From positions 1 to 54,341 of the forward strand of contig JADFXQ010000007.1 of assembly GCA_015233495.1 (NCBI GenBank): DNA of 54,341 nucleotides. Reading direction: 5' to 3'. The notes beneath the pieces were generated by a model. The model was given only the letters and a program-made list of their open reading frames with translations, was not told where the DNA came from and ran no database searches. The stretch's first letter is position 1; every line of letters starts with the position of its first letter. The stretch comes from Candidatus Omnitrophota bacterium (GTDB lineage Bacteria; Omnitrophota; Gorgyraeia; Zapsychrales; Zapsychraceae). Positions 1 to 29,701 of the stretch are shown here, one piece after another. The translations under genes and the position numbers were made by a program.

Positions 1-126
1 GTCTGCGTTTTTGGTTTTTTGTTTGGGATCAAGCAATTTATCAGCATCATGCAAATGCCGGTGCACCGGGCCATGAAGGAAATTTCCGAACTTATTTATG
101 AAACCTGCAAAACTTATCTTATTACT
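1..126 (+). pseudogene. hppA: Fragment of a membrane-bound H+/Na+-translocating pyrophosphatase gene, cut off at ~126
   Basis: Frame +1 reads VCVFGFLFGIKQFISIMQMPVHRAMKEISELIYETCKTYLIT, matching the remembered HppA motif PVHxxMxEISELIYETCKTYLITQGKF. After LIT it diverges (PAVYPWS) and stops at 148-150. Absent from the ORF track. Confidence 0.8.
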
Positions 127-3100
127 CCAGCGGTATATCCTTGGAGCTAATGCATTGCAAGGATGCCTGATCCGGACGCGATGTCGCGCTCCATAACGAC
201 GGAAGGTTCCCTTGATTCATGGACGCAAAACCAATCGACCCTCCTATAATCCCGCCAAGAAACATATCCGCATGACCTGTGGCGATCGAATATGCCCCTC
301 CTCCTATTAGAGAAACATTTTGAAACACATCTTTGGCAAAATTCGACCAACTGCTGCCTCCGACGCCCCCGGCTATACCTCCGAAAACTGCGCCCCACAT
401 AGCTCCTTGCAAGGCTCCTTGACCACCTCCCATTATGCCTCCGGTAATCGCCCCGCCAACCGCGCCTCCAAGTACTCCTCCCGCTACACCACCCCAAAAA
501 CTGCTTCCTAAAGCAGTCACGAAAAGCCCGCCCGCTCCCCCAGTGGCAATTGTGATTACTACTGCTACCACCGCCCCAATAACGCTCGCAAAAAAATTCT
601 TCCAACTCCACTTATGTCCATCCGCGTCTACTCTGTTGACCGGATTATTACCGCAATAAGAATATCGATTCAACGTTTGCGGATCATCTGGCGCTTGGAC
701 CATCTCATCCGCCTGAACAAACCTCCCAATCGCCGGATCATAATAACGCGATTCGAAATAATATAACCCCGACGTTGCGTCACTTTCCTTTCCGGTGAAG
801 TTGTATCTGGTCTGTTCTTCCGGGAATTGCGCCGCGTCGTGTCTGGCGGTTTTTCCGAAGGGTTCGTATTCGAATTTCTCTTTTACCACACCTTCGTAGT
901 CTGTGGTGACATTGGTGCCGCCTAAATGGTCGGTATGGTAAAAGAGCTGATTGCCGTTACGAACTGTGGCGATTCTGGTCGAGCCTAAGAAGATATGATC
1001 GGCTGTGCCAAAATTGTCTTCTTCGTAGAGCGACCCAACGTATTTGGTGAGCATACCGCCGGCCGCTACTTTTACCCGGCCGCCGTCACCGTCGTAGGTG
1101 AAGGTCTCGATGGTTGTGCCGTTTTTGCTGATCCCGGAAAGACGGTTTTCCGCGTCGTACACCAAATTCTGCGTATCGCCGCCTGCCACCTTCCTGGTCG
1201 TCATGTTACCGTTAGCGTCATAGCCAAACTGCGAATTGTCCGAAAGCGAAGTGACCGCGTGCGGTCCAGCGCCGTTTTCGCCATAGGTATAACTCCGGCC
1301 GTCCATAGTCTGGATGTTGCCGATTTCATTATACGTGTAAGCCTTAATGCCGTACGACCCGTTCGCCGTGGCTAAACGGTTTAAGTGATCATAGGTAAAA
1401 GTCTGGGTCGAGGTGTTGACATTATCGACTATCTTCAATATGTCGCCGATCGCGTCATAGGTATAATTCAAATTCTGCAGTTTCTGATTGGCTTTATTGA
1501 CCGTGACTTTTTGCGTTAATCTTAAGGTGGTCGGGTCAAAGGTGTTCGTGGTCACATCGCCATTGCCGTACTCGATTTTGGTGGTCTGTCCGTTGCTGTC
1601 ATATTCCACTGCTTTGACATAAAGAACCGATGATGAGCTGTACGGTTTCAAAACAGCTTCATTGGAAGGCGCACTTTCCTCTTCATCGCGCAGGGCGATG
1701 ACCACAATGTAATACGTTGTGCCGTTGGTTAAATTGCCCAACGTGTCAGCTGTGGCAGTGCCTTCATCTTTGATTTCGGAATAATTACCAGACGCTGTTC
1801 CGTATCTGACCTTATAGCCAGTCGCGCCCGTAACAGCTGTCCAACTCAATTTGACGTTTTGATCGCCCGGCAAAGCCGAATTCAAAACCGGCGCCGAAAG
1901 CGGATTTTTCGCGATCGCGGATAGCTCATTGGATTTCGCGCTTTCATAATGCGCGTTAGCCGCAGTTACGACAAAATAATAGGTTGTCCCTCCGGTCAAG
2001 CCTTTGACCGTATAGGTTCGTTCCTGGCCGGCGATATCCCCGGCAGCGTACTCCACAGTCGTCTGGGGTTTGCCATACGCTCCCGGAGCTGTGCCATAAT
2101 ATACGTTATACCCTGTAGCGCCTGCCACAGATCCCCATTTGAGCGTGACCTTTTGAGTAGCAGCTGTGGCTGTATTCAATTGCGGCGCTGATAGAATTAC
2201 GACTTCCGGCGACTTTTTGCCTTCACCGCTGGGATTGATCGCTGTAGCCGTTAAGTAATAGGTGGTTCCCGCGGTCAACCCCTTTAGGGTGTAATTAGTT
2301 GTATTCCCTAAGGAAACAGCGCTCCCGTACACTCCCGGGGTTGTACCGTAATAAATTTTATACCCGGTAGCGCTCTGGACCGGATCCCAATTTAAAGTGA
2401 TTTGATTCCCCGGACCGCCAAACCCGCTTAAATTCGGCGCTCCCGGCAAAGTCAAAACAGTCACTTCCGGAGATTTTTCGCTTTCCCCGCCGGTATAATT
2501 CACGGATGTCGCAGCTAAATAGTATAATGTCCCGTCCTCTAATTTTAGACTTTGGGTCGTGTATGTGGTAGAGCCCGCGTCTTCCGTACCAACATTATAA
2601 TCCCCGGATGTCTTGCCGCAATAAATCCGGTATTTTGTCGCGGACTGTATCCACTGCAAATTCATCGTGACTTTGTTCTGCTCGCCTCGCGCCCAAATAA
2701 TGGACGTGGCCGGAGGCAAAGTCATGGTCCACTGTTGATCGCTTTGATACCCTTCGCCGGAGGCGTTCCTCGCCGAGACACGGAAAAAATAGGATTTGCC
2801 GGGCAGTAAATCCGTTATCGTATAGCTCAACACATTGCCTACGGGTTGGGAGTTGGTGTAAACGCCTGACTCTGTCCCGTAATAAATAATATACCGGTCA
2901 GCGCCCTTAACTTCCGTCCAGTTTACCGCTATTGCTTTTTTGCCTCCAATCACGGAAATCGTGGCGGGATAGCCCGGAAGCGTCAACGCGCTGACTTCCG
3001 TAGACTTCGCGCTTTCCCCGCCTGGATCTACCGCGGTCACAGCCAGAAAATACCGTGTTCCGTTTTCCAGACCTTTGACAGTGTAGGTCGTTGAGTTCGC

Positions 3101-6100
3101 TGCCTGCACCTTTGCATTTGACTCGCCTTCTTTGCGATAATAAATGTTATAACTCGTCGCGCTTTGAACCCAGACGATATTCACTGTGATCTGGCCCATT
3201 TCACCTCTGGCCCAGCGCAGGGTTGTCGCGTCGGCCAATGTACAGGTCCATTTTTCGTCGGATTGCGTACCTTCCCCTGCCGCGTTCACCGCCGAGACCC
3301 GGAAAAAGTATTGCGTGCCGGAAGGCAGGTTTTGCAATGTATATTTAGTCACATTAGCAACCGGAACCGCAGTTAAATTCGATTCGCTGTTTTTACGGTA
3401 ATAAAGAATATAAGAATCCACGCCCGGCACCGCAGTCCAGTTGACCGTGATCGCGGTTGTTGCCGCAGACAATGAGATCGCCGGATATCCGGGTCCGGTC
3501 AACGCGATTTTTTCATTTGATTTCGCGCTTTCCCCGCTGACATTAACCGCCGCCACCGCGAAATAATATTTTGTCGCGTATGCTAAAGACAATGTCGTTG
3601 TTGTCACTTTTCCTAAAACTAAGTTTTTCGTATACGTTCCCGGACTTGTCCCGTAATAAATTTTATACGAGTCCGCGCCCGGCACCGAGTTCCAGGTCAA
3701 GGTGACTTTTTCCTTATTTACTGCTGGATCGTTTAAGACCGGCTGGTCCAACAAGGTCACAACACTTTTTTCCGTAGATTTGGCGCTTTCGCCGCTGGCG
3801 TTCAGCGTGGTCACGGAAATATAATACTTTGTCCCGGCATCCAAACCGGTTAAGGTGTATACCGATCCCGGGGCTCTTTTCGGTGATGTAGATTCATACA
3901 CGCCGGGCTGTTTTCCATAATAGATGTTGTACCCAGTCACATTTTTGACCCAATTATAACTGGCAGTGATTTGGTTAGTCCCGCCTTGCAGCGAGTTGAT
4001 TACCGTCGGAGCGGTGATGGTCGCAGTCCATTTTTGGTCGCTTTGATTGCTTTCACCGGCAGCGTTTTTCGCGGACACCCGGAAAAAATACGTAGTCCCG
4101 GCGTCTAAAGGATTCACGGTAAATGTTGTTACGTTTCCCACGTTCCGGGAATTGGGATATACACCCGAGGTTGATCCCCAATACAAGACGTACGAATCCG
4201 CGCCCGTGACTGCATCCCAATTGACCGTGATTTGATTTACCCCGCCAACTACCGAACTTATCGTCGGCGTTCCCGGAGCGGTTAACGCGCTTTTTTCCGT
4301 AGATTTTGGGCTTTCGCCTGCGACGTTGACTGCGGCGACCGTGAAATAATACTTTGTCGCATTGGCTAAATTCTGTACAGTATAGGAATTTTGATTATTT
4401 AAAAGAATCGACGCTCCATAGGAACCGGAGGTGGTGCCGTAATATATTTTGTAAGCTGTGGCGCCCGCTACCGACTGCCAAGTTAAAGTAACTTGACTGA
4501 TTCCACCTGTAATAACGCTGATTGTCGGCGTTGCTGGCACATCCGCGGCTTCGGCTTGACCTACTCCGAGGAGAGTTTCGAAGAATTGGGCAACCCCAGA
4601 AGCTAATTCGATGGTTTTAGTTTGTTTGACTTCACTTTTTTGAAACAAGGCCGGATCGTTAGCTACGCCTATAGGTTGGCCGATGGCGTTGTAACGATAA
4701 TAAATTTTCTCGCCGCTGGGATAAGTGATATCGCGGATATTCCCTAAATCGTCATAAGTCCGGCGCACCGTAAAGGATTTACCGTCAATAGTTTTGGTCG
4801 ATGTCACTTCCCGGCCCAGGTTATCGTAGGTAAACGTAGTGTTCCCGCCAGGGTAATCGACTTGCGTCAATCGCCCGATCGGATATGACACCTTCGGGTC
4901 GTCATAAGTGTATGCGACATTTATGTTGCCGTGATCGGTCTTGTTCAATAAACGATTCAAAGCGTCATAAGTAAATTCTAACTTTTGCCCTTTCGCGTCC
5001 GTCTGCGAAATCATGTTGCCTTCGATGTCATAAACATATTGCCACGCGCCCATGTCCGGGTCATTCATGCCGATCTTGCGGCCCAGAGTGTCATAAGTGA
5101 TGGTGACTTGATTGCCTTTGGCATCCGTGGTCTTGATCAGATGGCCGCGCACATCATAATCGTATTTTGTCGTCGCGTATAAAGTGAACGCTTGCGCCGG
5201 ATAAGCCGTGGACCGGCCGTCCGCGCCCGCGTATTCGCGTTTTTCAATCAGGTTACCGCGAGCATCAGTAACCGATTCTTGTTTATGCCCATTGGGATCG
5301 ATCGTCGTTGTTGTAAAATCATCATAAGAAATATTCGCGTATGTCCCATCCGGATTGGTCGACTTGATCGGCCGGCCCGCCGGATCATAATCCGTTTTAG
5401 TGCGCAGTCCAGTCGTATCAATCGCGTCCAGCTCGTCCTGATCAGTCTTTGACGAGAACGATAAATATTGATATTGCGGCAGTCCCCGTTGATCATATTC
5501 AGTGTGGCCGGACACCTGGAATGTGCCGTCCAGTCCCGTCGGGTTTTTCGCTTCAATCAGCCGTCCCAACCCGTCATAAAATTCCACGGTTTTGATCATA
5601 TCGCTTTTGCCGCTGATTATCCGTTTATAATTCGTTACCCGGGTATAATTGCTGAAATAATCAACCTGCGACGTGCGGGTAGGCATATCCAAAGAATCCA
5701 CCGGCGAAATATATTTAATTGTCCTGCCAAACAAATCATAAATGGATAAATCGCTCTGCCCATTGGAGTCGGTCACTGATTTAACCTGACCGCACAACCC
5801 ATTGTCCGCGTCAACTCCGTTTACCCCGTAATAAGCGGTTTTTGAAATGTGCCCCAAAGCGTTTTTCGTTTCGATCGGAAACACATGCAAATCCGGGTCA
5901 TAGGTAACGGTTGTGACTTTTCCAGACGGAGATGTGGTCTTGACCACATTGCCGTAAACGTCATATTCCAGGGTATTTTCCAGATACGGAGTATTGGGGC
6001 CGGTCCATTTTTGGGTTTTAGTCAATTGCCCCAGAACCGGGGTGTCTAAGTAATTCGCGGCCCCATCGTAAAGCAGTTTTACTTGTGCTAACAAATTATT

Positions 6101-8941
6101 GGATTTATCGTAAAGTTCTGTATATTGCGGCAGTCCCAACATTTGGGTCGTTGAGGTTCTCACATCATGGTATCGTGTTACCGTGATAAGGGCGTCATCC
6201 CCGATATCTTCCCCGGTGGTTAAATCAACTTCCCCTAAATTTATGGATTTAGTGACGTTGCCAAATTGCGGATCCTGCTCATAATAATTCAACACCGCGG
6301 TGCGTTTGCCGGTTGCGTTGCCGTCGAACACATATTGATCTGTCCGGCTTAATTTAATAAGTTTGACCAGCGGGTTGGAGTTATAAACCGTTTCCGTAGA
6401 ATAGGTATTCTCGGTTTTATTGAACAGTCTGCCGTCCGCGCTGTAAAACGCGGTGCTTAAGGGCAGACCTCTCCGGTAAATGTCGCTTTGATCGAAAGTA
6501 GTTTCCACCCGGTTGCCGTCAGCATCTTTCACTGTCACTTTGGCAAAACCCATGAATTCTTGATCCGCCGCGCTCCACAAACCACCGCTATAATCATAAT
6601 CCGTAACATAATTATGGCCTCGATTGTCCGAAACAGTGACCCGGTTCAATAAAGGCATGACATACGGCAAGTAAGTATTGTTCTTTTGCGTGGAAGGCAC
6701 ATATGAGACTTCGGTGGTCGCGCCAACCCCATTATCAAACTTAGTCAAGAGATCCGCTACCCCGCCGGTGCCATAGGCAAACTGTTGTTCTCCGTTGGTT
6801 GGATTATAAATATAAAAATCCATAACCCCGTCGCCGTTAAAATCGCCGGTTTGCACTTGCGAGCTCGCATTTCTTATGTCAAAAGTCACAGGAAACTTCT
6901 TGTTAACCCCATAGCCTCCTTCAATACCGGATAAACGATAATATAAACTGCCCGTGTTATACTCAAAATATCCGATATCCGTTAACCCGTCACCGTTAAA
7001 ATCCGCGGTGCATGGCGGATAAGACTGCCCGCCAAACCCAGTCACATAATGTTTTTCATCGTTACTATTATAAAATCCTTGCGACTCCCCTCCCTTATTA
7101 GTGTAAATCCGCCACGTTCCGATGGCTTTATCATAAGTAGCGAAATCCCCTAGCCCGTCCCCGTTAAAATCCCCGGGCACAAGAATCAATGAATCAGAAT
7201 ACGCGCCAAGGTCAAACGCTGTCAAAGCCGGCTCATGCGTGATATCAAAATGGTCATTCTTATTAAAGGCAATTTTCACGCCCATTTCTCCGGAAATAGA
7301 ATTCCCGGGAAACACCGCGTAAGCATCAGTTAACCGGTCGCCATTAAAATCTCCCGTTCTTATATCGCCCGAGGCCGGCCCCCAACTGGCGGCAAAAGAC
7401 ACCCAGTTAGCTAATTTGGAGCCATCGGAAAAAAGAGCGACGAACAAGTTGTTTGACGACCTATCAACAGAACCAAAATCCATTTTCCCATCCCGATTAA
7501 AATCTCCGAGCACAATCTGCGTATCCGGCCGAATATAATGCTCCGCTCCGGTTGACCAAATCTGTTTTGGCAGAAAACCCGTCCCATTGGAAAGCGCGAC
7601 TTGTATATTGCCATTTTGGGCGTCGGGAAAAACCGTGGCTATATCCGTAAAACCGTCGCCGTTAAAATCCGCCGCGTATTGCAGCTGGGATGCCCCGTCG
7701 ATAGTTATGGGTGACAACGTATATCCAGCCGACGGATCATCATTATACGTTATCGTGATCGGCGGCAGAGACGCAGTGTCATCCCGATCGCGCTGAGTAA
7801 TCTTGGTCAACAGCGACCGGCCGGTGCGCCGGCTGTTAGTGTATTCCAGAGAATAACGCCGCACAATTTTCCAACCCTGGCTCGCTTTATAAGCCACAGT
7901 GATTCCAGTGACCGGATTATCTGTTTTCATTGGAAACCCGGGCGAATAAGACACAATCTGTTCCGAACGGGTCTGCGCGTTAATTTCGAAATAAACATGT
8001 CCAAAAAATCCCTGATCAACATAATTAAATTTAATCTTATCAGTGCCGGGTGTTCCGCCAAACCACACATCGTATTCCGCGGCATTCGTGCGATGCCGGA
8101 CAATATAATAATTCCCGTTGATATCCTTCACCTCGCTCAATTTCCAGCGGTAAATTCTGGCGTTATTTTCCGGATCATATTCTCGAGAACTATCCAGCAG
8201 CAAATCATCTAAACCAAAATAGTAAGTATTTCCCGCCCGGTCATAAGCTGTCCAAATTTTCCCGTCAAAAACATATTTCGTAAAATCCCCCTGCACCTTG
8301 GCCCGGTATTCATTGCCGCTGACATTCACCAATTCTTGACTGCCGCCTCCTAATGAAGACACAAATGTATCTGCAGACGTGTAGGTAGGCACTCCGTTTT
8401 TCAAAGACCGCTCAATCGTCGGAAAAGCCATCTGCCAACCCACGCCAAACGGACCTTTGCCAGCCCGCGGTGAATACGTCAGAGCCAAAGACGGAGCCAT
8501 GCCTTTGCGGCCGGGTGGGATCGCGATCGGCAGCGTAAACACAGGAGCGCCGCTGGAGGAGTCAAAGGAAAAATTTTGCACCAGATGTTCCGGAGTAGGC
8601 GCGGCCGAGGGCGAACTCGAGGCGGTGGAAAATTGTGTTCCCGAGGTCTTTTTTCCCGCCGCAATGGAAGCCGTTTTTTCCTTTGTCTCCGAAGCAGCCG
8701 GATTAATTTTGGCAGTCGATTTATCAGCGCTAACTGGAGCGGATCCGGAAGCTGTCCCGGGCGCGGCAGTCGCCGCCGATGCTGTGGAAGAAGAAACTGT
8801 CGCAGAAGAAGCCTTCGCAGAAGAAGCGGTTTGCGCGGCTTTCGCCAGAGCTAACGAAGGATAGAAAGTTTGGTACAAAAAGCAGATGCAAACAAAAACA
8901 TTAAGCAACTTCCAAACCCTGCCCGCGAAAAAATTTTTCAT
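122..8941 (-). CDS. Giant YD-repeat/Rhs protein: signal peptide, Ala/Ser/Thr linker, SpvB/TcB-like domain, FG-GAP/VCBS repeats, YD repeats, 11 FN3 domains, Rhs core, Gly-rich hydrophobic C-terminus
   Basis: SpvB-like PIAIPPGRKGMAPSLALTYS...GVGW; several DFNGDGxxD repeats; YD repeats; Rhs core FTGKESD...YYFESRYYDPAIGRF...NNPVNRVDADG; N-terminal hydrophobic segment ending ALA-KA. Confidence 0.9.
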   Translation of the reverse strand: MKNFFAGRVWKLLNVFVCICFLYQTFYPSLALAKAAQTASSAKASSATVSSSTASAATAAPGTASGSAPVSADKSTAKINPAASETKEKTASIAAGKKTSGTQFSTASSSPSAAPTPEHLVQNFSFDSSSGAPVFTLPIAIPPGRKGMAPSLALTYSPRAGKGPFGVGWQMAFPTIERSLKNGVPTYTSADTFVSSLGGGSQELVNVSGNEYRAKVQGDFTKYVFDGKIWTAYDRAGNTYYFGLDDLLLDSSREYDPENNARIYRWKLSEVKDINGNYYIVRHRTNAAEYDVWFGGTPGTDKIKFNYVDQGFFGHVYFEINAQTRSEQIVSYSPGFPMKTDNPVTGITVAYKASQGWKIVRRYSLEYTNSRRTGRSLLTKITQRDRDDTASLPPITITYNDDPSAGYTLSPITIDGASQLQYAADFNGDGFTDIATVFPDAQNGNIQVALSNGTGFLPKQIWSTGAEHYIRPDTQIVLGDFNRDGKMDFGSVDRSSNNLFVALFSDGSKLANWVSFAASWGPASGDIRTGDFNGDRLTDAYAVFPGNSISGEMGVKIAFNKNDHFDITHEPALTAFDLGAYSDSLILVPGDFNGDGLGDFATYDKAIGTWRIYTNKGGESQGFYNSNDEKHYVTGFGGQSYPPCTADFNGDGLTDIGYFEYNTGSLYYRLSGIEGGYGVNKKFPVTFDIRNASSQVQTGDFNGDGVMDFYIYNPTNGEQQFAYGTGGVADLLTKFDNGVGATTEVSYVPSTQKNNTYLPYVMPLLNRVTVSDNRGHNYVTDYDYSGGLWSAADQEFMGFAKVTVKDADGNRVETTFDQSDIYRRGLPLSTAFYSADGRLFNKTENTYSTETVYNSNPLVKLIKLSRTDQYVFDGNATGKRTAVLNYYEQDPQFGNVTKSINLGEVDLTTGEDIGDDALITVTRYHDVRTSTTQMLGLPQYTELYDKSNNLLAQVKLLYDGAANYLDTPVLGQLTKTQKWTGPNTPYLENTLEYDVYGNVVKTTSPSGKVTTVTYDPDLHVFPIETKNALGHISKTAYYGVNGVDADNGLCGQVKSVTDSNGQSDLSIYDLFGRTIKYISPVDSLDMPTRTSQVDYFSNYTRVTNYKRIISGKSDMIKTVEFYDGLGRLIEAKNPTGLDGTFQVSGHTEYDQRGLPQYQYLSFSSKTDQDELDAIDTTGLRTKTDYDPAGRPIKSTNPDGTYANISYDDFTTTTIDPNGHKQESVTDARGNLIEKREYAGADGRSTAYPAQAFTLYATTKYDYDVRGHLIKTTDAKGNQVTITYDTLGRKIGMNDPDMGAWQYVYDIEGNMISQTDAKGQKLEFTYDALNRLLNKTDHGNINVAYTYDDPKVSYPIGRLTQVDYPGGNTTFTYDNLGREVTSTKTIDGKSFTVRRTYDDLGNIRDITYPSGEKIYYRYNAIGQPIGVANDPALFQKSEVKQTKTIELASGVAQFFETLLGVGQAEAADVPATPTISVITGGISQVTLTWQSVAGATAYKIYYGTTSGSYGASILLNNQNSYTVQNLANATKYYFTVAAVNVAGESPKSTEKSALTAPGTPTISSVVGGVNQITVNWDAVTGADSYVLYWGSTSGVYPNSRNVGNVTTFTVNPLDAGTTYFFRVSAKNAAGESNQSDQKWTATITAPTVINSLQGGTNQITASYNWVKNVTGYNIYYGKQPGVYESTSPKRAPGSVYTLTGLDAGTKYYISVTTLNASGESAKSTEKSVVTLLDQPVLNDPAVNKEKVTLTWNSVPGADSYKIYYGTSPGTYTKNLVLGKVTTTTLSLAYATKYYFAVAAVNVSGESAKSNEKIALTGPGYPAISLSAATTAITVNWTAVPGVDSYILYYRKNSESNLTAVPVANVTKYTLQNLPSGTQYFFRVSAVNAAGEGTQSDEKWTCTLADATTLRWARGEMGQITVNIVWVQSATSYNIYYRKEGESNAKVQAANSTTYTVKGLENGTRYFLAVTAVDPGGESAKSTEVSALTLPGYPATISVIGGKKAIAVNWTEVKGADRYIIYYGTESGVYTNSQPVGNVLSYTITDLLPGKSYFFRVSARNASGEGYQSDQQWTMTLPPATSIIWARGEQNKVTMNLQWIQSATKYRIYCGKTSGDYNVGTEDAGSTTYTTQSLKLEDGTLYYLAATSVNYTGGESEKSPEVTVLTLPGAPNLSGFGGPGNQITLNWDPVQSATGYKIYYGTTPGVYGSAVSLGNTTNYTLKGLTAGTTYYLTATAINPSGEGKKSPEVVILSAPQLNTATAATQKVTLKWGSVAGATGYNVYYGTAPGAYGKPQTTVEYAAGDIAGQERTYTVKGLTGGTTYYFVVTAANAHYESAKSNELSAIAKNPLSAPVLNSALPGDQNVKLSWTAVTGATGYKVRYGTASGNYSEIKDEGTATADTLGNLTNGTTYYIVVIALRDEEESAPSNEAVLKPYSSSSVLYVKAVEYDSNGQTTKIEYGNGDVTTNTFDPTTLRLTQKVTVNKANQKLQNLNYTYDAIGDILKIVDNVNTSTQTFTYDHLNRLATANGSYGIKAYTYNEIGNIQTMDGRSYTYGENGAGPHAVTSLSDNSQFGYDANGNMTTRKVAGGDTQNLVYDAENRLSGISKNGTTIETFTYDGDGGRVKVAAGGMLTKYVGSLYEEDNFGTADHIFLGSTRIATVRNGNQLFYHTDHLGGTNVTTDYEGVVKEKFEYEPFGKTARHDAAQFPEEQTRYNFTGKESDATSGLYYFESRYYDPAIGRFVQADEMVQAPDDPQTLNRYSYCGNNPVNRVDADGHKWSWKNFFASVIGAVVAVVITIATGGAGGLFVTALGSSFWGGVAGGVLGGAVGGAITGGIMGGGQGALQGAMWGAVFGGIAGGVGGSSWSNFAKDVFQNVSLIGGGAYSIATGHADMFLGGIIGGSIGFASMNQGNLPSLWSATSRPDQASLQCISSKDIPLE
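1640..4543 (-). repeat. Tandem array of 11 fibronectin type III domains inside the Rhs protein
   Basis: Eleven ~85-95 aa units with W..V.GA..Y.IYYG and Y(Y/F)..V.A.N..GES..S, counted by eye from DVPATP to AVLKPY. Confidence 0.9.
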
Positions 8942-26161: not shown

Positions 26162-26431
26162 TCAACGGAATAAATCCGAATGAGTTCCCGTGCGCTCAAA
26201 AATGACCAAATCGCCCGAAATTTTATAAATCACCAACCAATCCGATTCGATATGACACTCTATACGGCCCACGTAATCTCCGGCCAACTTATGATCACGA
26301 TGGATAGGATCCAAAGACTGTCCGGCGACGATCGTCTCAATAATTAGCTTTAATTTCGGGAAACTTTTGCCCCGGCGCTTTGCTAAATGGATATCTTTTT
26401 CAAACTGTTTTGTATAAGAAGGTTGGAACAT
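26162..26431 (-). CDS. yafQ: YafQ family mRNA interferase toxin
   Basis: RDHKLAGDY..RIECHIESDWLVIY...RTGTHSDLF. Confidence 0.92.
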   Translation of the reverse strand: MFQPSYTKQFEKDIHLAKRRGKSFPKLKLIIETIVAGQSLDPIHRDHKLAGDYVGRIECHIESDWLVIYKISGDLVIFERTGTHSDLFR

Positions 26432-26691
26432 TAAATCCCCAGCTTAGCGTAAAGTTCCTTAACATCAGCGCAAATCACGACATCCCTCCCCGCGTCCGTG
26501 TCACGAAAAGTTTGCGCCGTGGCCTCATTCGGGACAACCACGTCAAACGGCAAACCCCGGCGCATTTCCACCTGCTTATAAAAAATTGTCAGGGCTTCCG
26601 TAGCTGATAACCCAATGCTCCGAAAGACACGTTCGGCTTTAGTTTTTAAACCCGGCTCAATCCGCGCCCGGATCATCGCTGTTTTGCTCAT
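26431..26691 (-). CDS. dinJ: RelB/DinJ family antitoxin
   Basis: IRARIEPGLKTKAERVF..IGLSATEA...GLPFDV..PNEAT. Confidence 0.9.
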   Translation of the reverse strand: MSKTAMIRARIEPGLKTKAERVFRSIGLSATEALTIFYKQVEMRRGLPFDVVVPNEATAQTFRDTDAGRDVVICADVKELYAKLGI

Positions 26692-26979: not shown

Positions 26980-29652
26980 TTAATTGGCCTGTCCATACTG
27001 ATTCGCCGCCGAAGCTGATTTGAATCCCAACAACAGCGGGAGGTTTTTGACCGGGGCAATCTCTTGGATAACGGGAACAAGCCCGTTGATGTCCACGCTG
27101 ACATTCGGGACATCCTGAAACTTCAGCGGCAAAGCCGCGCCGCTCCTGTCACGCTTGACGCGCAGATTTTGAAAAGCCGAAATCAAATCAATCCCGCCGT
27201 TGGTACGGTTTCGGGTCCCCCAATCAAACCGCGTTGCCGACGGAGAGCTTGCCGGTTTTTTCAGCAAATCGCCCCGGCCAAAATAGACCGGTTGACCGGG
27301 GCCGCTGTATCCAAATTTCTCCTCGCCTTCCCAACGATATTGAGAAGGCGTCGATTCCCAAAAAGTCGGCATTGATCCGGGGGCATCTTCTTCCGTCTCA
27401 ATATCGCTTAACACAGTCACATCCGGTCTTGCCGCCGGAAAAATCGTGATTTCATAAATCATTCTGGCTGTCGTTTCATTAAATCCCACGCTGAGTCCCA
27501 AGGTAACCGTTTCCCATAAATTTTGCGCGGCTTTGATCAGCAGATGCTGAAATGACAAATGACTGATAAATTGATGATATCGCAAACGGGCCTGATAAGT
27601 CGCTTTTAAATCAGCATACTCTTTTTCAGTCCCACCATGCGTAATAAAATCAGACGAATCATCTAATATTTTCGGTAAAACAACCCCTTCCGGGTCAATA
27701 TATCCGTCGTCGATCAACACATTACTTCGAGCCAGAAAAACCACGGGGTTTTTCATGTCATGATTTACAAATTGGCCATGAAACGCGTCATTACGAATAT
27801 ACCAAAACCTCTTTGTGATCCGCTCCCCATTTTCATTAAGGACTTTAAATTCTATGACAGCATGATCTTCCCGATCGTTTTCATTTTTAACAAACACAAT
27901 TTCGCCGTCATCATTGAGACGAAAAAAATGAACGGCCGATACTTCCCCGCGCAACAAAGATATAATCCTCCCCAAAACCAATCCGCCGACTCCATTATAA
28001 TCTTCCGATGTCCCACTCAGTTGTCTTGCGTAGTCGTTGGCTAAAAAACGTCCGCCGGCTTTATTTTGAGGATCCGCGTACTTACAAAAAGCGATTAAAT
28101 CCTTAAACGAGCCGAACGGCAAATCGTTCATCACCACGACATCCGTCGCCTGTGTGTCCAAAGCAAACGGCGTGTACACATCCACTCCACCTAAAGGGTA
28201 ATAAATGACCGATCCGTTAAAGCCGGCCAGGCCGCCCAAATGCCTCAAAAAAACAGTCTGGGATGCTATTTCTTCGCGAATCCGGAGAACCTCTGTTTTC
28301 CGTCCCAAATCGCTGGCCAGCGCAGCTACGGCCGCTCTAAAATCCTTCTGTTCCAAAAAATTGTATCCGCTTAATTGCGGCAAGCTCCTATCCGCCACGA
28401 TGGGTGAACTTCCGGGCGAACTTCCAGCCGGATGAACATTGACTGTAACTTCCTCAAGCGGCGATGCAGTCCGGACTGCTTTTTGAGCCGCCAGCGGACT
28501 CGCGGAACTCAACGGCTGTTGGCCTGCGAACCCGCCGGAAAAATACTGCCGGGTCACGGTTTCCTCGGTCAGCGGATCCACGTCTTCCTTGACGTAATTC
28601 ATCACGCCCGTCTTGAACGCTGCGACATATCGGTCATAAATTTTTTGATTGTTCTTCACATCCGCCTGGTTCACGCCTGCGGTTTTACCTTTATCAACGT
28701 AATGCTTGCCGAGAAAACTCTCCTTGAGCGCTTTTTTATACCAGGCCGCAAGAATAAGCGAATGGTTGATCTGACGGAGCAAGGCGAAATTTTTCCCTTC
28801 ATTCACTTCTTTCTCGATCGCCGGGATGATGATTTCGCGCATGATTTGGGAAGCAAGGGCACGGGTTGTTTCCTCGCGGGCACTCACACCGACTATTCCG
28901 CTTCGCGTGTAGGGGCGCCCCTCGTGGGCGCCCGTTACTCGGTCGCGCCAGGACGACGGGCGCCCACGAGGGGCGCCCCTACGCTCTGCCAAATAATCCT
29001 CCTCCAGCATCACATTCAAATGGCTATCAACTATAAAAACCGTGTTGCCCTGTTCATACACCTCCGCCTTGTCCGGCATGATCCAGACTTTGTTGAATGT
29101 ATCCACCGGAATATCGTCTGTCCCGAATTTGGCTTTCGCTTCCTTATATATCCTGTCCCAAAACGCTTTCCCTATATCCTTTTGCGGATCAAGCAAAGAC
29201 GCGGTGAGCTGTTTTAAAATATAATCCTGAGCCAAAAGGTCCCGGCCCATTTCGGTTTTACCGAGATCGTCGGGGATAATCCGATTTTTTTCGTAGGGCG
29301 ACAAATTCACCCAAATATTTTTCTCCGGCACAGTCAATGCGGCAAGAAAATATTTGATGAGTTTCTGGTATTCTTTTACTTTTGCGTCTTTAGGCTGGCG
29401 CGAATAGTCGACATCGCCGGGCGAGATTAAAAAATCGAACTTCAGCGGATTGTCCGAATGAACAATTAAACCCTTCATAACCGCCGGATTATACGTCGAA
29501 GATAAATTGACCATCGCCCCAGGCACAGGCAATGTACCAACAAACTGCGCCGGAGCGGATCCCGGCAAAGCCAATATAAACATCACGAGCAAAATTCCGC
29601 GAAACAGCCGGAAAATGACACAGTCATTGATTTTAATCAGGCATCCGGTCAT
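26980..29652 (-). CDS. Secreted hypothetical protein with family-type N domain, central cargo and GGIDL C-terminal module (likely start ATG 29652)
   Basis: Long ORF with signal peptide ending APA-Q; LIKYFLAALTVPEKNIWVNLSPYEK...GRDLLAQDYILKQLTASL...FNKVWI...YFSGG; C-terminal GGIDL...KRD...PL...GLVPVI...LPLLLG. I recall this pattern from Omnitrophota hypothetical proteins. Confidence 0.75.
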   Translation of the reverse strand: MTGCLIKINDCVIFRLFRGILLVMFILALPGSAPAQFVGTLPVPGAMVNLSSTYNPAVMKGLIVHSDNPLKFDFLISPGDVDYSRQPKDAKVKEYQKLIKYFLAALTVPEKNIWVNLSPYEKNRIIPDDLGKTEMGRDLLAQDYILKQLTASLLDPQKDIGKAFWDRIYKEAKAKFGTDDIPVDTFNKVWIMPDKAEVYEQGNTVFIVDSHLNVMLEEDYLAERRGAPRGRPSSWRDRVTGAHEGRPYTRSGIVGVSAREETTRALASQIMREIIIPAIEKEVNEGKNFALLRQINHSLILAAWYKKALKESFLGKHYVDKGKTAGVNQADVKNNQKIYDRYVAAFKTGVMNYVKEDVDPLTEETVTRQYFSGGFAGQQPLSSASPLAAQKAVRTASPLEEVTVNVHPAGSSPGSSPIVADRSLPQLSGYNFLEQKDFRAAVAALASDLGRKTEVLRIREEIASQTVFLRHLGGLAGFNGSVIYYPLGGVDVYTPFALDTQATDVVVMNDLPFGSFKDLIAFCKYADPQNKAGGRFLANDYARQLSGTSEDYNGVGGLVLGRIISLLRGEVSAVHFFRLNDDGEIVFVKNENDREDHAVIEFKVLNENGERITKRFWYIRNDAFHGQFVNHDMKNPVVFLARSNVLIDDGYIDPEGVVLPKILDDSSDFITHGGTEKEYADLKATYQARLRYHQFISHLSFQHLLIKAAQNLWETVTLGLSVGFNETTARMIYEITIFPAARPDVTVLSDIETEEDAPGSMPTFWESTPSQYRWEGEEKFGYSGPGQPVYFGRGDLLKKPASSPSATRFDWGTRNRTNGGIDLISAFQNLRVKRDRSGAALPLKFQDVPNVSVDINGLVPVIQEIAPVKNLPLLLGFKSASAANQYGQAN
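28909..28982. mobile_element. Intact 74-bp GTAG-type REPIN inside a coding sequence
   Basis: Perfect 27-bp inverted arms GTAGGGGCGCCCCTCGTGGGCGCCCGT (28909-28935) and its reverse complement (28956-28982), 20-bp spacer; each arm is itself a small hairpin. Confidence 0.88.
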
Positions 29653-29701
29653 AAAGAAAGTATACCCGATCACGACTGAAACGGCCAATCCGGCTTTAAA
29701 A

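Follow-up and report, generated by a model that had tools for sequence, protein, structure and literature searches.

Conserved terminal modules around exchangeable cargo in a large Omnitrophota protein family predicted to be exported

The window analyzed here is a 54,341-nt stretch of DNA from a Candidatus Omnitrophota bacterium, contig C89 of a 2.10-Mb assembly (111 contigs, 91% complete), and the gene under study lies on its minus strand and encodes a protein of 890 amino acids (aa). We judge, at a probability of roughly one half, that this gene is a member of a large family restricted to Omnitrophota, whose proteins are exported by Sec and consist, in order, of a signal peptide, an N module, a short tag, a cargo, a second tag and a C module. 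A sequence-only reading of the gene had described a signal peptide, an N domain running to YFSGG, a cluster of S/A-S-P motifs, a middle, a further ASSP and a tail beginning GGIDL, and each of these was found in its place (Table 1). The modules and the cargo between them were compared within the genome and among relatives, and the tag was counted at both junctions.

Terminal modules and exchangeable cargo

A genome search with the full protein returned 73 matches, mostly to residues ~10-420, in open reading frames (ORFs) of 422-4261 aa. Iterated profiles run against all genome ORFs located the N module in 32 ORFs, or ~27 genes, of 404-4224 aa. For the C module, a first, narrower profile matched 12 ORFs of the genome, and a broader profile built from 17 C modules matched 24 places, 18 of them inside N-module ORFs. 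The other places were in ORFs cut by a contig start (4) or directly downstream of N-only ORFs (2), and from that position the latter were taken as split genes; every C module of the genome was assignable to an N-module gene. Many family members were located at contig ends, as expected if repeated modules break the assembly. Two family genes, at C67:41141-43238 and C23:122686-125516, were split into N-bearing and C-bearing ORFs that overlap or abut, and these are frameshifts, pseudogenes or assembly errors.

The cargo held between the two modules is exchangeable and mostly unrelated among members. Middles ranged from ~250 to ~3800 aa, and in an all-against-all BLAST of them, homology over most of the cargo was seen in one pair only (C41/C47, 36% identity), the other matches being confined to shared C-terminal forms and short linker stretches. 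When 26 paralogues were searched with Pfam, 17 had no family at E ≤ 0.01 and 5 had families above the curated cut-off. AAA_5, VWA, AAA and a transglutaminase core were assigned to the 4224-aa member, HEAT repeats to three members and His_Phos_1 to one, and a HATPase-type match among the paralogues fell below the cut-off. Across tools and sources, cargoes were named as AAA_5, HEAT, His_Phos_1, OmpR-family and CheY-like receivers, the C-terminal domain of RNA polymerase alpha and NUDIX, and repeat or binding types (HEAT, VWA, TPR, beta-propeller, LysM) were common. Further cargo accessions are presumably HATPase_c, DnaJ, cNMP-binding, PP2C, PGK, radical SAM and phosphoglucomutase.

Identity along aligned members was that of a mosaic. 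Between C41 and C47, N modules were 82-97% identical in amino acids and 83-93% in nucleotides, middles 17-36% in amino acids where alignable (one gap-dominated window at 2%) and 38-57% in nucleotides, and C modules 72-79% in amino acids. For the gene under study and its nearest paralogue, C14, the corresponding values were 40-90% (N), 5-27% (middle) and 32-47% (C). At the module borders, nucleotide identity stepped from ~40-57% to 83-93%.

The C module occurred in three forms, each starting GG[IVL]x[LF]. The form of the gene under study reads IKRD..PLP..G.xPVI..LP..LG, the second reads KEG.GIEFK...SVLPILGL, and the third is longer, with an extra stretch of ~110 aa that looks helical by eye. 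In this gene the module is made up of an invariant GG, I-D-L, KRD, PLP, G-L-V-P-V-I, LPLLLGF and a polar tail; no transmembrane helix was found in it, the polar tail being without a hydrophobic helix. Beyond the C module, a tail motif [LS]P-x-GKE-[LP]-E was common to paralogues L033, L036, L040, L041, L047 and L054, and members of the KEG form ended in PADVKK[FL]. The window gene had neither of these tail motifs.

The N module had 19 invariant columns among 121 sequences. In a maximum-likelihood tree of 25 N modules, two clades had 100/100 support, one comprising four members with the long C form and one truncated gene, and the other three KEG-form members, one split gene and one contig-cut gene. 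When C types were mapped as labels on this tree, 9 changes were counted against a shuffled mean of 13.5, and 0/200 shuffles were as low. The result shows N and C staying together through changes of cargo; as related members have labels in common, such co-variation alone does not show a physical interaction.

Neither module matched a known family. Pfam gave nothing on the gene at E ≤ 1 and NCBIfam a chance-level match only (E 0.17); across 25 N modules and 17 C modules the two libraries gave no family, with chance single matches only for C at E ≤ 1. PDB sequence profiles gave no match for N, C or the middle, and matches to the N module in the ESM Atlas (best score 0.87) were all 'hypothetical protein'. 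The N module was modelled from 121 sequences as a mixed alpha/beta domain (mean predicted local distance difference test, pLDDT, 81.3; predicted template modelling score, pTM, 0.80). The model opens with two short strands, long helices and a long beta-hairpin (model residues 154-181), has a poorly defined loop next, and closes with a pair of very long helices and a last hairpin whose end is YFSGG. The best structural matches were at E 0.14 (Foldseek against PDB), Z 4.0 (VIA-align, 48,161 chains) and E 0.016 with a template modelling score of ~0.09 (BFVD). No known fold was found for the model in these searches, which makes the N module a candidate new fold and is not proof of one.

The middle domain of this gene was single copy, the genome search giving the self match only, and a word-indexed search returned the gene itself only. 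An exhaustive search among 1.84 billion representatives gave 74 relatives at E ≤ 0.001, lying inside proteins of 178-7806 aa, with eight stretches in one giant. The N module was present in 18 of the 73 other relatives, and many others were stand-alone proteins of 300-450 aa. No Pfam family was found over the domain in 28 relatives scanned, methyltransferase models (Pfam, NCBIfam) and PDB sequence profiles had no match to it, and ESM Atlas matches (best score 0.85) were all 'hypothetical protein'. A model built from 40 sequences had a pLDDT of 89.7 and a pTM of 0.90, and all 50 rows listed for it by VIA-align were class I methyltransferase-type Rossmann folds (Z 8.8-6.9, 147-186 residues aligned, root-mean-square deviation 3.3-5.8). 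The relatives share a conserved Y-P-F/L-G-G-x-D stretch. The model gives moderate support to a divergent methyltransferase-like domain.

The family is large and was seen in Omnitrophota-type records only. A word-indexed search (8000 candidates scored, lengths 489-1558 aa) gave at least 3903 cluster representatives at E ≤ 0.001, named as 'hypothetical protein' of Candidatus Omnitrophica/Omnitrophota or metagenome records. Query coverage in the best 120 of these matches was 38-54%, the gene itself excepted. A profile search of one genome per species gave at least 600 relatives, and the best 80 were in records bearing the titles Omnitrophota/Omnitrophica, 'uncultured Planctomycetales' bins, Candidatus Aceula lacicola or just 'bacterium'. 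N was found in all 119 database homologues and C in 117. Among 301 sampled genomes of the phylum, the N profile matched 70, including 27/29 in the gene's own order, 29/41 in f18 and none in several other families (among them 0/15 in f7 and 0/17 in f8); the C profile matched 30, all N-positive, including the same 27/29 in the own order and 1/41 in f18. First-look N candidates numbered up to 81 in one genome, that of a 2.6-Mb relative. The combination of N with this gene's C format is typical of one order, and N reaches further, with other or undetected ends.

The sequence-only reading had placed the N and C modules in many Omnitrophota proteins differing widely in length, and the 32 genome ORFs, the 70/301 genomes and the database homologues bear this out. 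Its cassette architecture, with conserved termini around non-homologous, tag-delimited middles, agrees with the BLAST, Pfam and mosaic identity results and with the tag positions given below. Coverage of the query was partial (38-54%), the gene was multi-copy and its termini matched no characterised family, each being the opposite of what had been named beforehand as speaking against such an architecture.

A short tag at both junctions

In this genome the junctions on either side of the cargo are marked by SSP. The motif occurred 60 times in 31,400 residues of the family (1.91 per 1000) and 181 times in the 618,888 residues of the rest of the approximate proteome (0.29 per 1000), and SSP[AVIL] was enriched 6.5-fold in the family. 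Its permutations in the family numbered 7 (SPS) and 4 (PSS), and the residue after SSP was A, V, I or L at 49/59 sites. Within 100 aa after the N module, SSP was present in 21/27 genes and [SAGT]SP in 24/27, where chance would give ~2.8% per gene; within 30 aa before GGxDL, the counts were 14/22 and 17/22 against a chance of ~0.8% per gene, and SSP usually stood 5-18 residues ahead of GGxDL. The 4224-aa member had three SSP only, a pair after N and a single one 10 residues ahead of GGIDL. The tags fell in low-confidence linkers, pLDDT being below 50 at N-model residues 342-365 and at the end of the middle model.

At 137 SSP sites, AGY and TCN serine codons occurred in many combinations. As both codon families are used, the motif is kept as peptide and not as DNA, and a DNA-level recombination site at SSP was ruled out by the same mixture.

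Other forms of the tag were found among relatives. Both modules were present in 117 database homologues, of which 81 had at least two D.A[MQ], 10 were SSP-type and 26 had neither. D.A[MQ] reached 9.5 per 1000 aa in the 100 aa after N and 9.9 in the 40 aa before C, against 2.1 in the middles, 0.57 in the N module and 0.33 expected from composition. In 75 after-N tails from named metagenome-assembled genome records, AM occurred at 12.4 per 1000 (3.2 expected), the position two before its A was D, N or S in 76/89 cases, and [DNS].AM was counted 76 times and its reverse twice. Neither tag type was present in 18/71 after-N tails of at least 60 aa. When 39 genes from 29 relatives' genomes were typed, the tag was uniform within a genome and differed between genomes even inside one taxonomic family: f1 had both SSP and D.AM genomes, f4 had D.AM throughout, and some f5 had NAAVL or VSSA[IL]. 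What these forms have in common is the pattern polar (D/N/S) - x - small (A/P) - hydrophobic. Taken together, the counts and codons indicate a tag selected at the protein level at both junctions.

The sequence-only reading took SSP as the motif around the effectors; this held in this genome and did not hold for the family as a whole, as most relatives carry [D/N/S]-x-A-M. Its suggestion of a glycosylation site does not fit the common variants DAAM, DKAM and NAAVL, which have no Ser/Thr, and a glycosylation sequon was set aside as the general meaning of the tag.

Outside the family, SSP was concentrated in giant and very long ORFs, with 26 in C16:6855-37526 (10223 aa) and 25 in C15:1-39402 (13134 aa, open). 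Across seven giant or very long ORFs, the next residue was A, V, I or L at 69/75 sites. Several giant tags stood directly after repeated domain ends (e.g. ...IIQLPRA-SSP, ...DIVLA-SSP), and in these proteins the SSP tag may lie at the borders between domains. Profile searches found neither the N nor the C module in the giants of this genome.

Export, proposed handling and rival explanations

Sec export is predicted for the gene under study, with cleavage before Gln36. By a crude rule (K/R followed by a 10-aa window of Kyte-Doolittle mean ≥ 1.8), 24/25 members whose start is intact were signal-peptide-like there, and an [AG]-Q end after the hydrophobic core was seen among family members. Six secretin (PF00263) matches were present in the genome (C28, C50, C59, C56, C31 and C23; five in frames of 495-622 aa), so that a secretin-based outer-membrane step is possible; nothing ties these secretins to the family. 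Processing of the double-glycine (C39) type at the invariant GG was unsupported, Peptidase_C39 not being found in the 91% complete genome. A search for a post-proline peptidase gave one borderline S9-type match only, in a 277-aa frame.

A mechanism can be proposed in steps, of which the best supported is that family proteins would leave the cytoplasm via Sec. N and C would together be a common handle for export, delivery or attachment machinery, whatever the cargo, because they are the only parts common to all members and stay alike as the cargo drifts or gives way to another. The tags would be recognition sites, most likely for a protease that cuts the cargo loose from its handle. For four ordered residues in disordered joints on both sides of a cargo of any size, a protease is the simplest reader; in addition, the tags recur at domain-scale spacing in the giants, and they change between genomes as would a site co-evolving with its enzyme. 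The same tag may divide the organism's giant proteins. The destination is the least supported step: it is probably another cell, host or prey, reached in the manner of MARTX-type effector carriers, as many cargo domains need ATP, S-adenosylmethionine (SAM) or a reducing cytoplasm and the phylum is described as host-dependent. The export and cleavage functions that the sequence-only reading gave to the termini and tags are plausible. A fuller version is possible and rather doubtful as a whole, in which N and C would be the address label of an Omnitrophota-specific export and host-delivery route, perhaps via a secretin, the tags would be protease sites drifting between genomes, and the giants would be polyproteins cut likewise.

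Several results weigh against a family of tagged, exported and cleaved cargo carriers. SSP was missing at 6/27 junctions after N and at 8/22 before C. No C-profile match was obtained in 40/70 N-positive genomes, mainly of f18. Among 22 further database proteins with the C module, N was present in 15 and absent in 7; of these seven, P0200, P0208 and P0210 have no start codon and are N-terminally cut, P0195 nearly fills a 2.7-kb contig, and the other three have a Met start on longer contigs. Among 133 ORFs flanking family genes there was no recurrent neighbour, one upstream pair excepted, and no protease candidate for the tags was found in the 91% complete genome. No machinery locus was seen to go with the family genes. 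For the cargo of the gene under study, the methyltransferase-like match was middling (best Z 8.8), Foldseek gave no match to the middle model at E ≤ 0.001, and some stand-alone relatives begin signal-peptide-like by eye, so this cargo need not act in a cytoplasm.

Three other explanations were weighed against the exported-carrier reading. Surface display or anchoring, which we hold to be unlikely, would have N hold the protein on the outer membrane, on peptidoglycan or on a surface layer, C serve as a sorting domain and the tags as hinges or attachment sites, the cargo acting on the surface, for instance where it touches a host cell, and being neither released nor injected. The signal-peptide-like starts and the commonness of repeat and binding cargoes (HEAT, VWA, TPR, beta-propeller, LysM) would suit it, the passages available of one preprint see the Omnitrophota giants in attachment to host or prey surfaces (10.1101/2023.11.21.568195), and the C module, small, strand-type and with a short motif ahead, resembles the C-terminal domain (CTD) that is swapped for a surface anchor in available accounts of type IX secretion system (T9SS) cargo. 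It is harder to reconcile with cargoes needing ATP, SAM or a reducing cytoplasm (AAA_5, the below-cut-off HATPase-type match, receivers, NUDIX and, presumably, PGK and radical SAM), with a C module that has no hydrophobic anchor and no sorting-signal model match, and with an N model that matched no known envelope-binding fold. We consider it improbable that N and C instead fold together as a clasp or cap, intramolecularly or head-to-tail, the tags being the unprocessed make-up of the joints and possibly modification sites. Such a fold would account for the co-variation of N subfamily with C subtype, although shared descent can also yield this, and for N and C staying similar while the cargo diverges; tags in disordered linkers and the lack of a protease candidate are consistent with it. 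Linker composition leaves the fixed order unexplained, however (SSP 60 vs SPS 7 and PSS 4; [DNS].AM 76 vs 2), as it does the fixed hydrophobic residue after the tag and the change of tag from one genome to another inside a single taxonomic family.

Ordinary paralogue expansion, in which one ancestral gene was duplicated and its middle evolved fast, without cassette exchange or shared handling, is very improbable. The C41/C47 middles align over their full length at 36% identity, and the family genes are dispersed and without mobile-element context, both of which would be in keeping with expansion. Against it stand middles of ~250 to ~3800 aa with unrelated Pfam families and a methyltransferase-like fold, the occurrence of the same middle domain outside the family, alone and in giants, and the jump in nucleotide identity from ~40-57% to 83-93% at the module borders.

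Of the known systems, MARTX (multifunctional-autoprocessing repeats-in-toxin) toxins come closest in design, T9SS cargo is also close, and the family is a member of neither. MARTX effectors are freed at short sites in inter-domain linkers. In the available passages of three papers (PMC4453568, PMC5218395, PMC2900308), MARTX of Vibrio and relatives have conserved termini around exchangeable effectors that act in the cytoplasm of another cell. The conserved flanks and central exchangeable domains are shared by this family. It differs in having no sequence or fold relation to MARTX, no RTX-type repeats in the gene (Pfam E ≤ 1) or in paralogue N and C modules, and no autoprocessing cysteine protease domain, as neither the gene nor 26 paralogues (E ≤ 0.01) gave a match to any peptidase family. 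A Sec-type signal peptide (24/25 by the crude rule) takes the place of type I secretion, single domains of 340 and 64 aa that of kilobase repeat regions, and tens of genes per genome that of one; the tag, moreover, changes between genomes.

T9SS cargo of Bacteroidota is described, in the passages available, as a Sec signal, a variable part and a small CTD export signal cut just upstream (PMC8545088, PMC12618676, PMC4804311). A Sec-type signal (crude rule), a small conserved C-terminal domain and many cargo genes per genome are common to both. In contrast, 17 C modules had no match to Por_Secre_tail or an NCBIfam sorting model, T9SS cargo has no common 340-aa N module, and cleavage by PorU, described as sequence-independent in the available part of PMC4804311, differs from a defined tag at both junctions. 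SprA_N and Por_Secre_tail searches of the genome gave no match, but control genomes were equally silent. LPXTG, PEP-CTERM and GlyGly-CTERM sorting signals differ likewise, the C module having no transmembrane helix and no NCBIfam sorting model match.

Polymorphic toxin systems join an exchangeable C-terminal toxin by recombination, form multi-copy families and carry an immunity gene. Their conserved trafficking N-terminal domain, as described in the available part of PMC3482391, has a proposed trafficking-type counterpart here, and exchangeable domains and multiple copies are also shared. In this family, by contrast, the variable part is internal and the C-terminus conserved, no recurrent downstream immunity-type gene was found among the 133 flanking ORFs, and cargoes are mostly not toxin-type domains.

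The Omnitrophota giants (archaeovorin- and dockerin-type) are described, in passages of two preprints, as exported proteins with cytoplasm-type enzyme and repeat domains (10.1101/2023.11.21.568195, 10.64898/2026.06.07.730766); the passages of the former state that their cleavage points are unknown, and those of the latter describe Omnitrophota as host-dependent. The phylum, the SSP[AVIL] tag in this genome and cytoplasm-type cargo are shared with the family. The giants of this genome differ in having no N or C module, and the passages of both preprints describe neither the modules nor the tag. A literature search of titles and abstract starts, with preprint supplementary domain catalogues outside that scope, found no description of the family, modules or tag. 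Both modules and the tag are new; the general idea of trafficking parts around swappable domains was already known.

Omnitrophota are widespread, mostly uncultured, host-dependent nanobacteria, and the family, which is a sizeable share of some genomes (~27 genes here), is a ready list of their likely exported cargoes. The framing modules, which have neither a Pfam nor an NCBIfam model nor a relative in PDB, are new protein space. The presence of the tag at module borders and through the giants makes the question of giant cleavage testable by peptide ends (between SSP and [AVIL], or between A and M). If the proposed cleavage is true, it would give a first testable cleavage map of the giants and a catalogue of what the nanobacteria send to hosts; if the tag is not a cleavage site, a place-keeping, genome-variable motif still points to a co-evolving recognition partner.

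Gene coordinates, neighbors and other ORFs

The minus-strand ORF extends over 26980..29688 with a TTG start at 29688 (902 aa). The in-frame ATG at 29652 gives the 890-aa protein whose numbering was used throughout, and in which YFSGG is residues 370-374.

Table 1. Parts of the gene under study and the repeat element within it (window positions)
Feature	Positions	Strand	Remarks
Whole gene	26980..29652	-	890 aa; stop codon at 26980-26982
Signal-peptide-like N-terminus, residues 1-35	29548..29652	-	K/R-bearing n-region, 10-aa hydrophobic core, end APA followed by Q
N module, residues 36-374	28531..29547	-	LPxPGxM start, R-x-Y-F-S-G-G end
Linker 1, residues 375-435	28348..28530	-	ASP 384, ASP 396, SSP 411, SSP 415
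Middle cargo domain, residues 436-800	27253..28347	-	Confident globular model, methyltransferase-like Rossmann fold
Linker 2, residues 801-818	27199..27252	-	ASSP at 801-804, 15 residues before GG
C module, residues 819-890	26983..27198	-	64 aa; GGIDL start; short polar tail
Palindromic repeat element, ~75 bp	28908..28983	both strands matched	In-frame insert in N-module variable loop, residues 224-249

The genes flanking this gene were housekeeping or unrelated. Downstream are leuS and a toxin-antitoxin pair (YafQ/RelB); upstream are thiS and other ORFs that resemble, by eye, thiamine-synthesis genes. The toxin-antitoxin pair lies directly downstream on the same strand (window 26162-26691, minus strand) and consists of a YafQ-type toxin of 89 aa (E 2e-28) and a RelB antitoxin of 86 aa (E 1.7e-12); no family link was seen. 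Elsewhere in the genome, the only recurrent neighbor of family genes found was a pair of ORFs of 344 and 365 aa (C23:46456-47490 and C83:5234-6331), 46% identical over 337 aa, each of which adjoins a family gene.

A 2939-aa ORF at window 122-8941 (minus strand) has a signal-peptide-like start and then a Ser/Ala/Thr-rich stretch. Its first ~40 residues resemble, by eye, those of a 2023-aa ORF on C24 (23750-29819) with 5 SSP, and the two are probably another exported paralogue pair.

The palindromic element in the N-module loop has two 27-nt inverted arms and a spacer of ~21 nt, and it gave 74 blastn-short matches in the genome on both strands. In the N model of this gene, the loop with the insert had a pLDDT of ~50. 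The element was also found in the same N-module loop of paralogues C44, C93 and C40 and inside the 10223-aa giant ORF on contig C16. The in-frame palindromic elements of Rickettsia are similar to this ~75-bp repeat.

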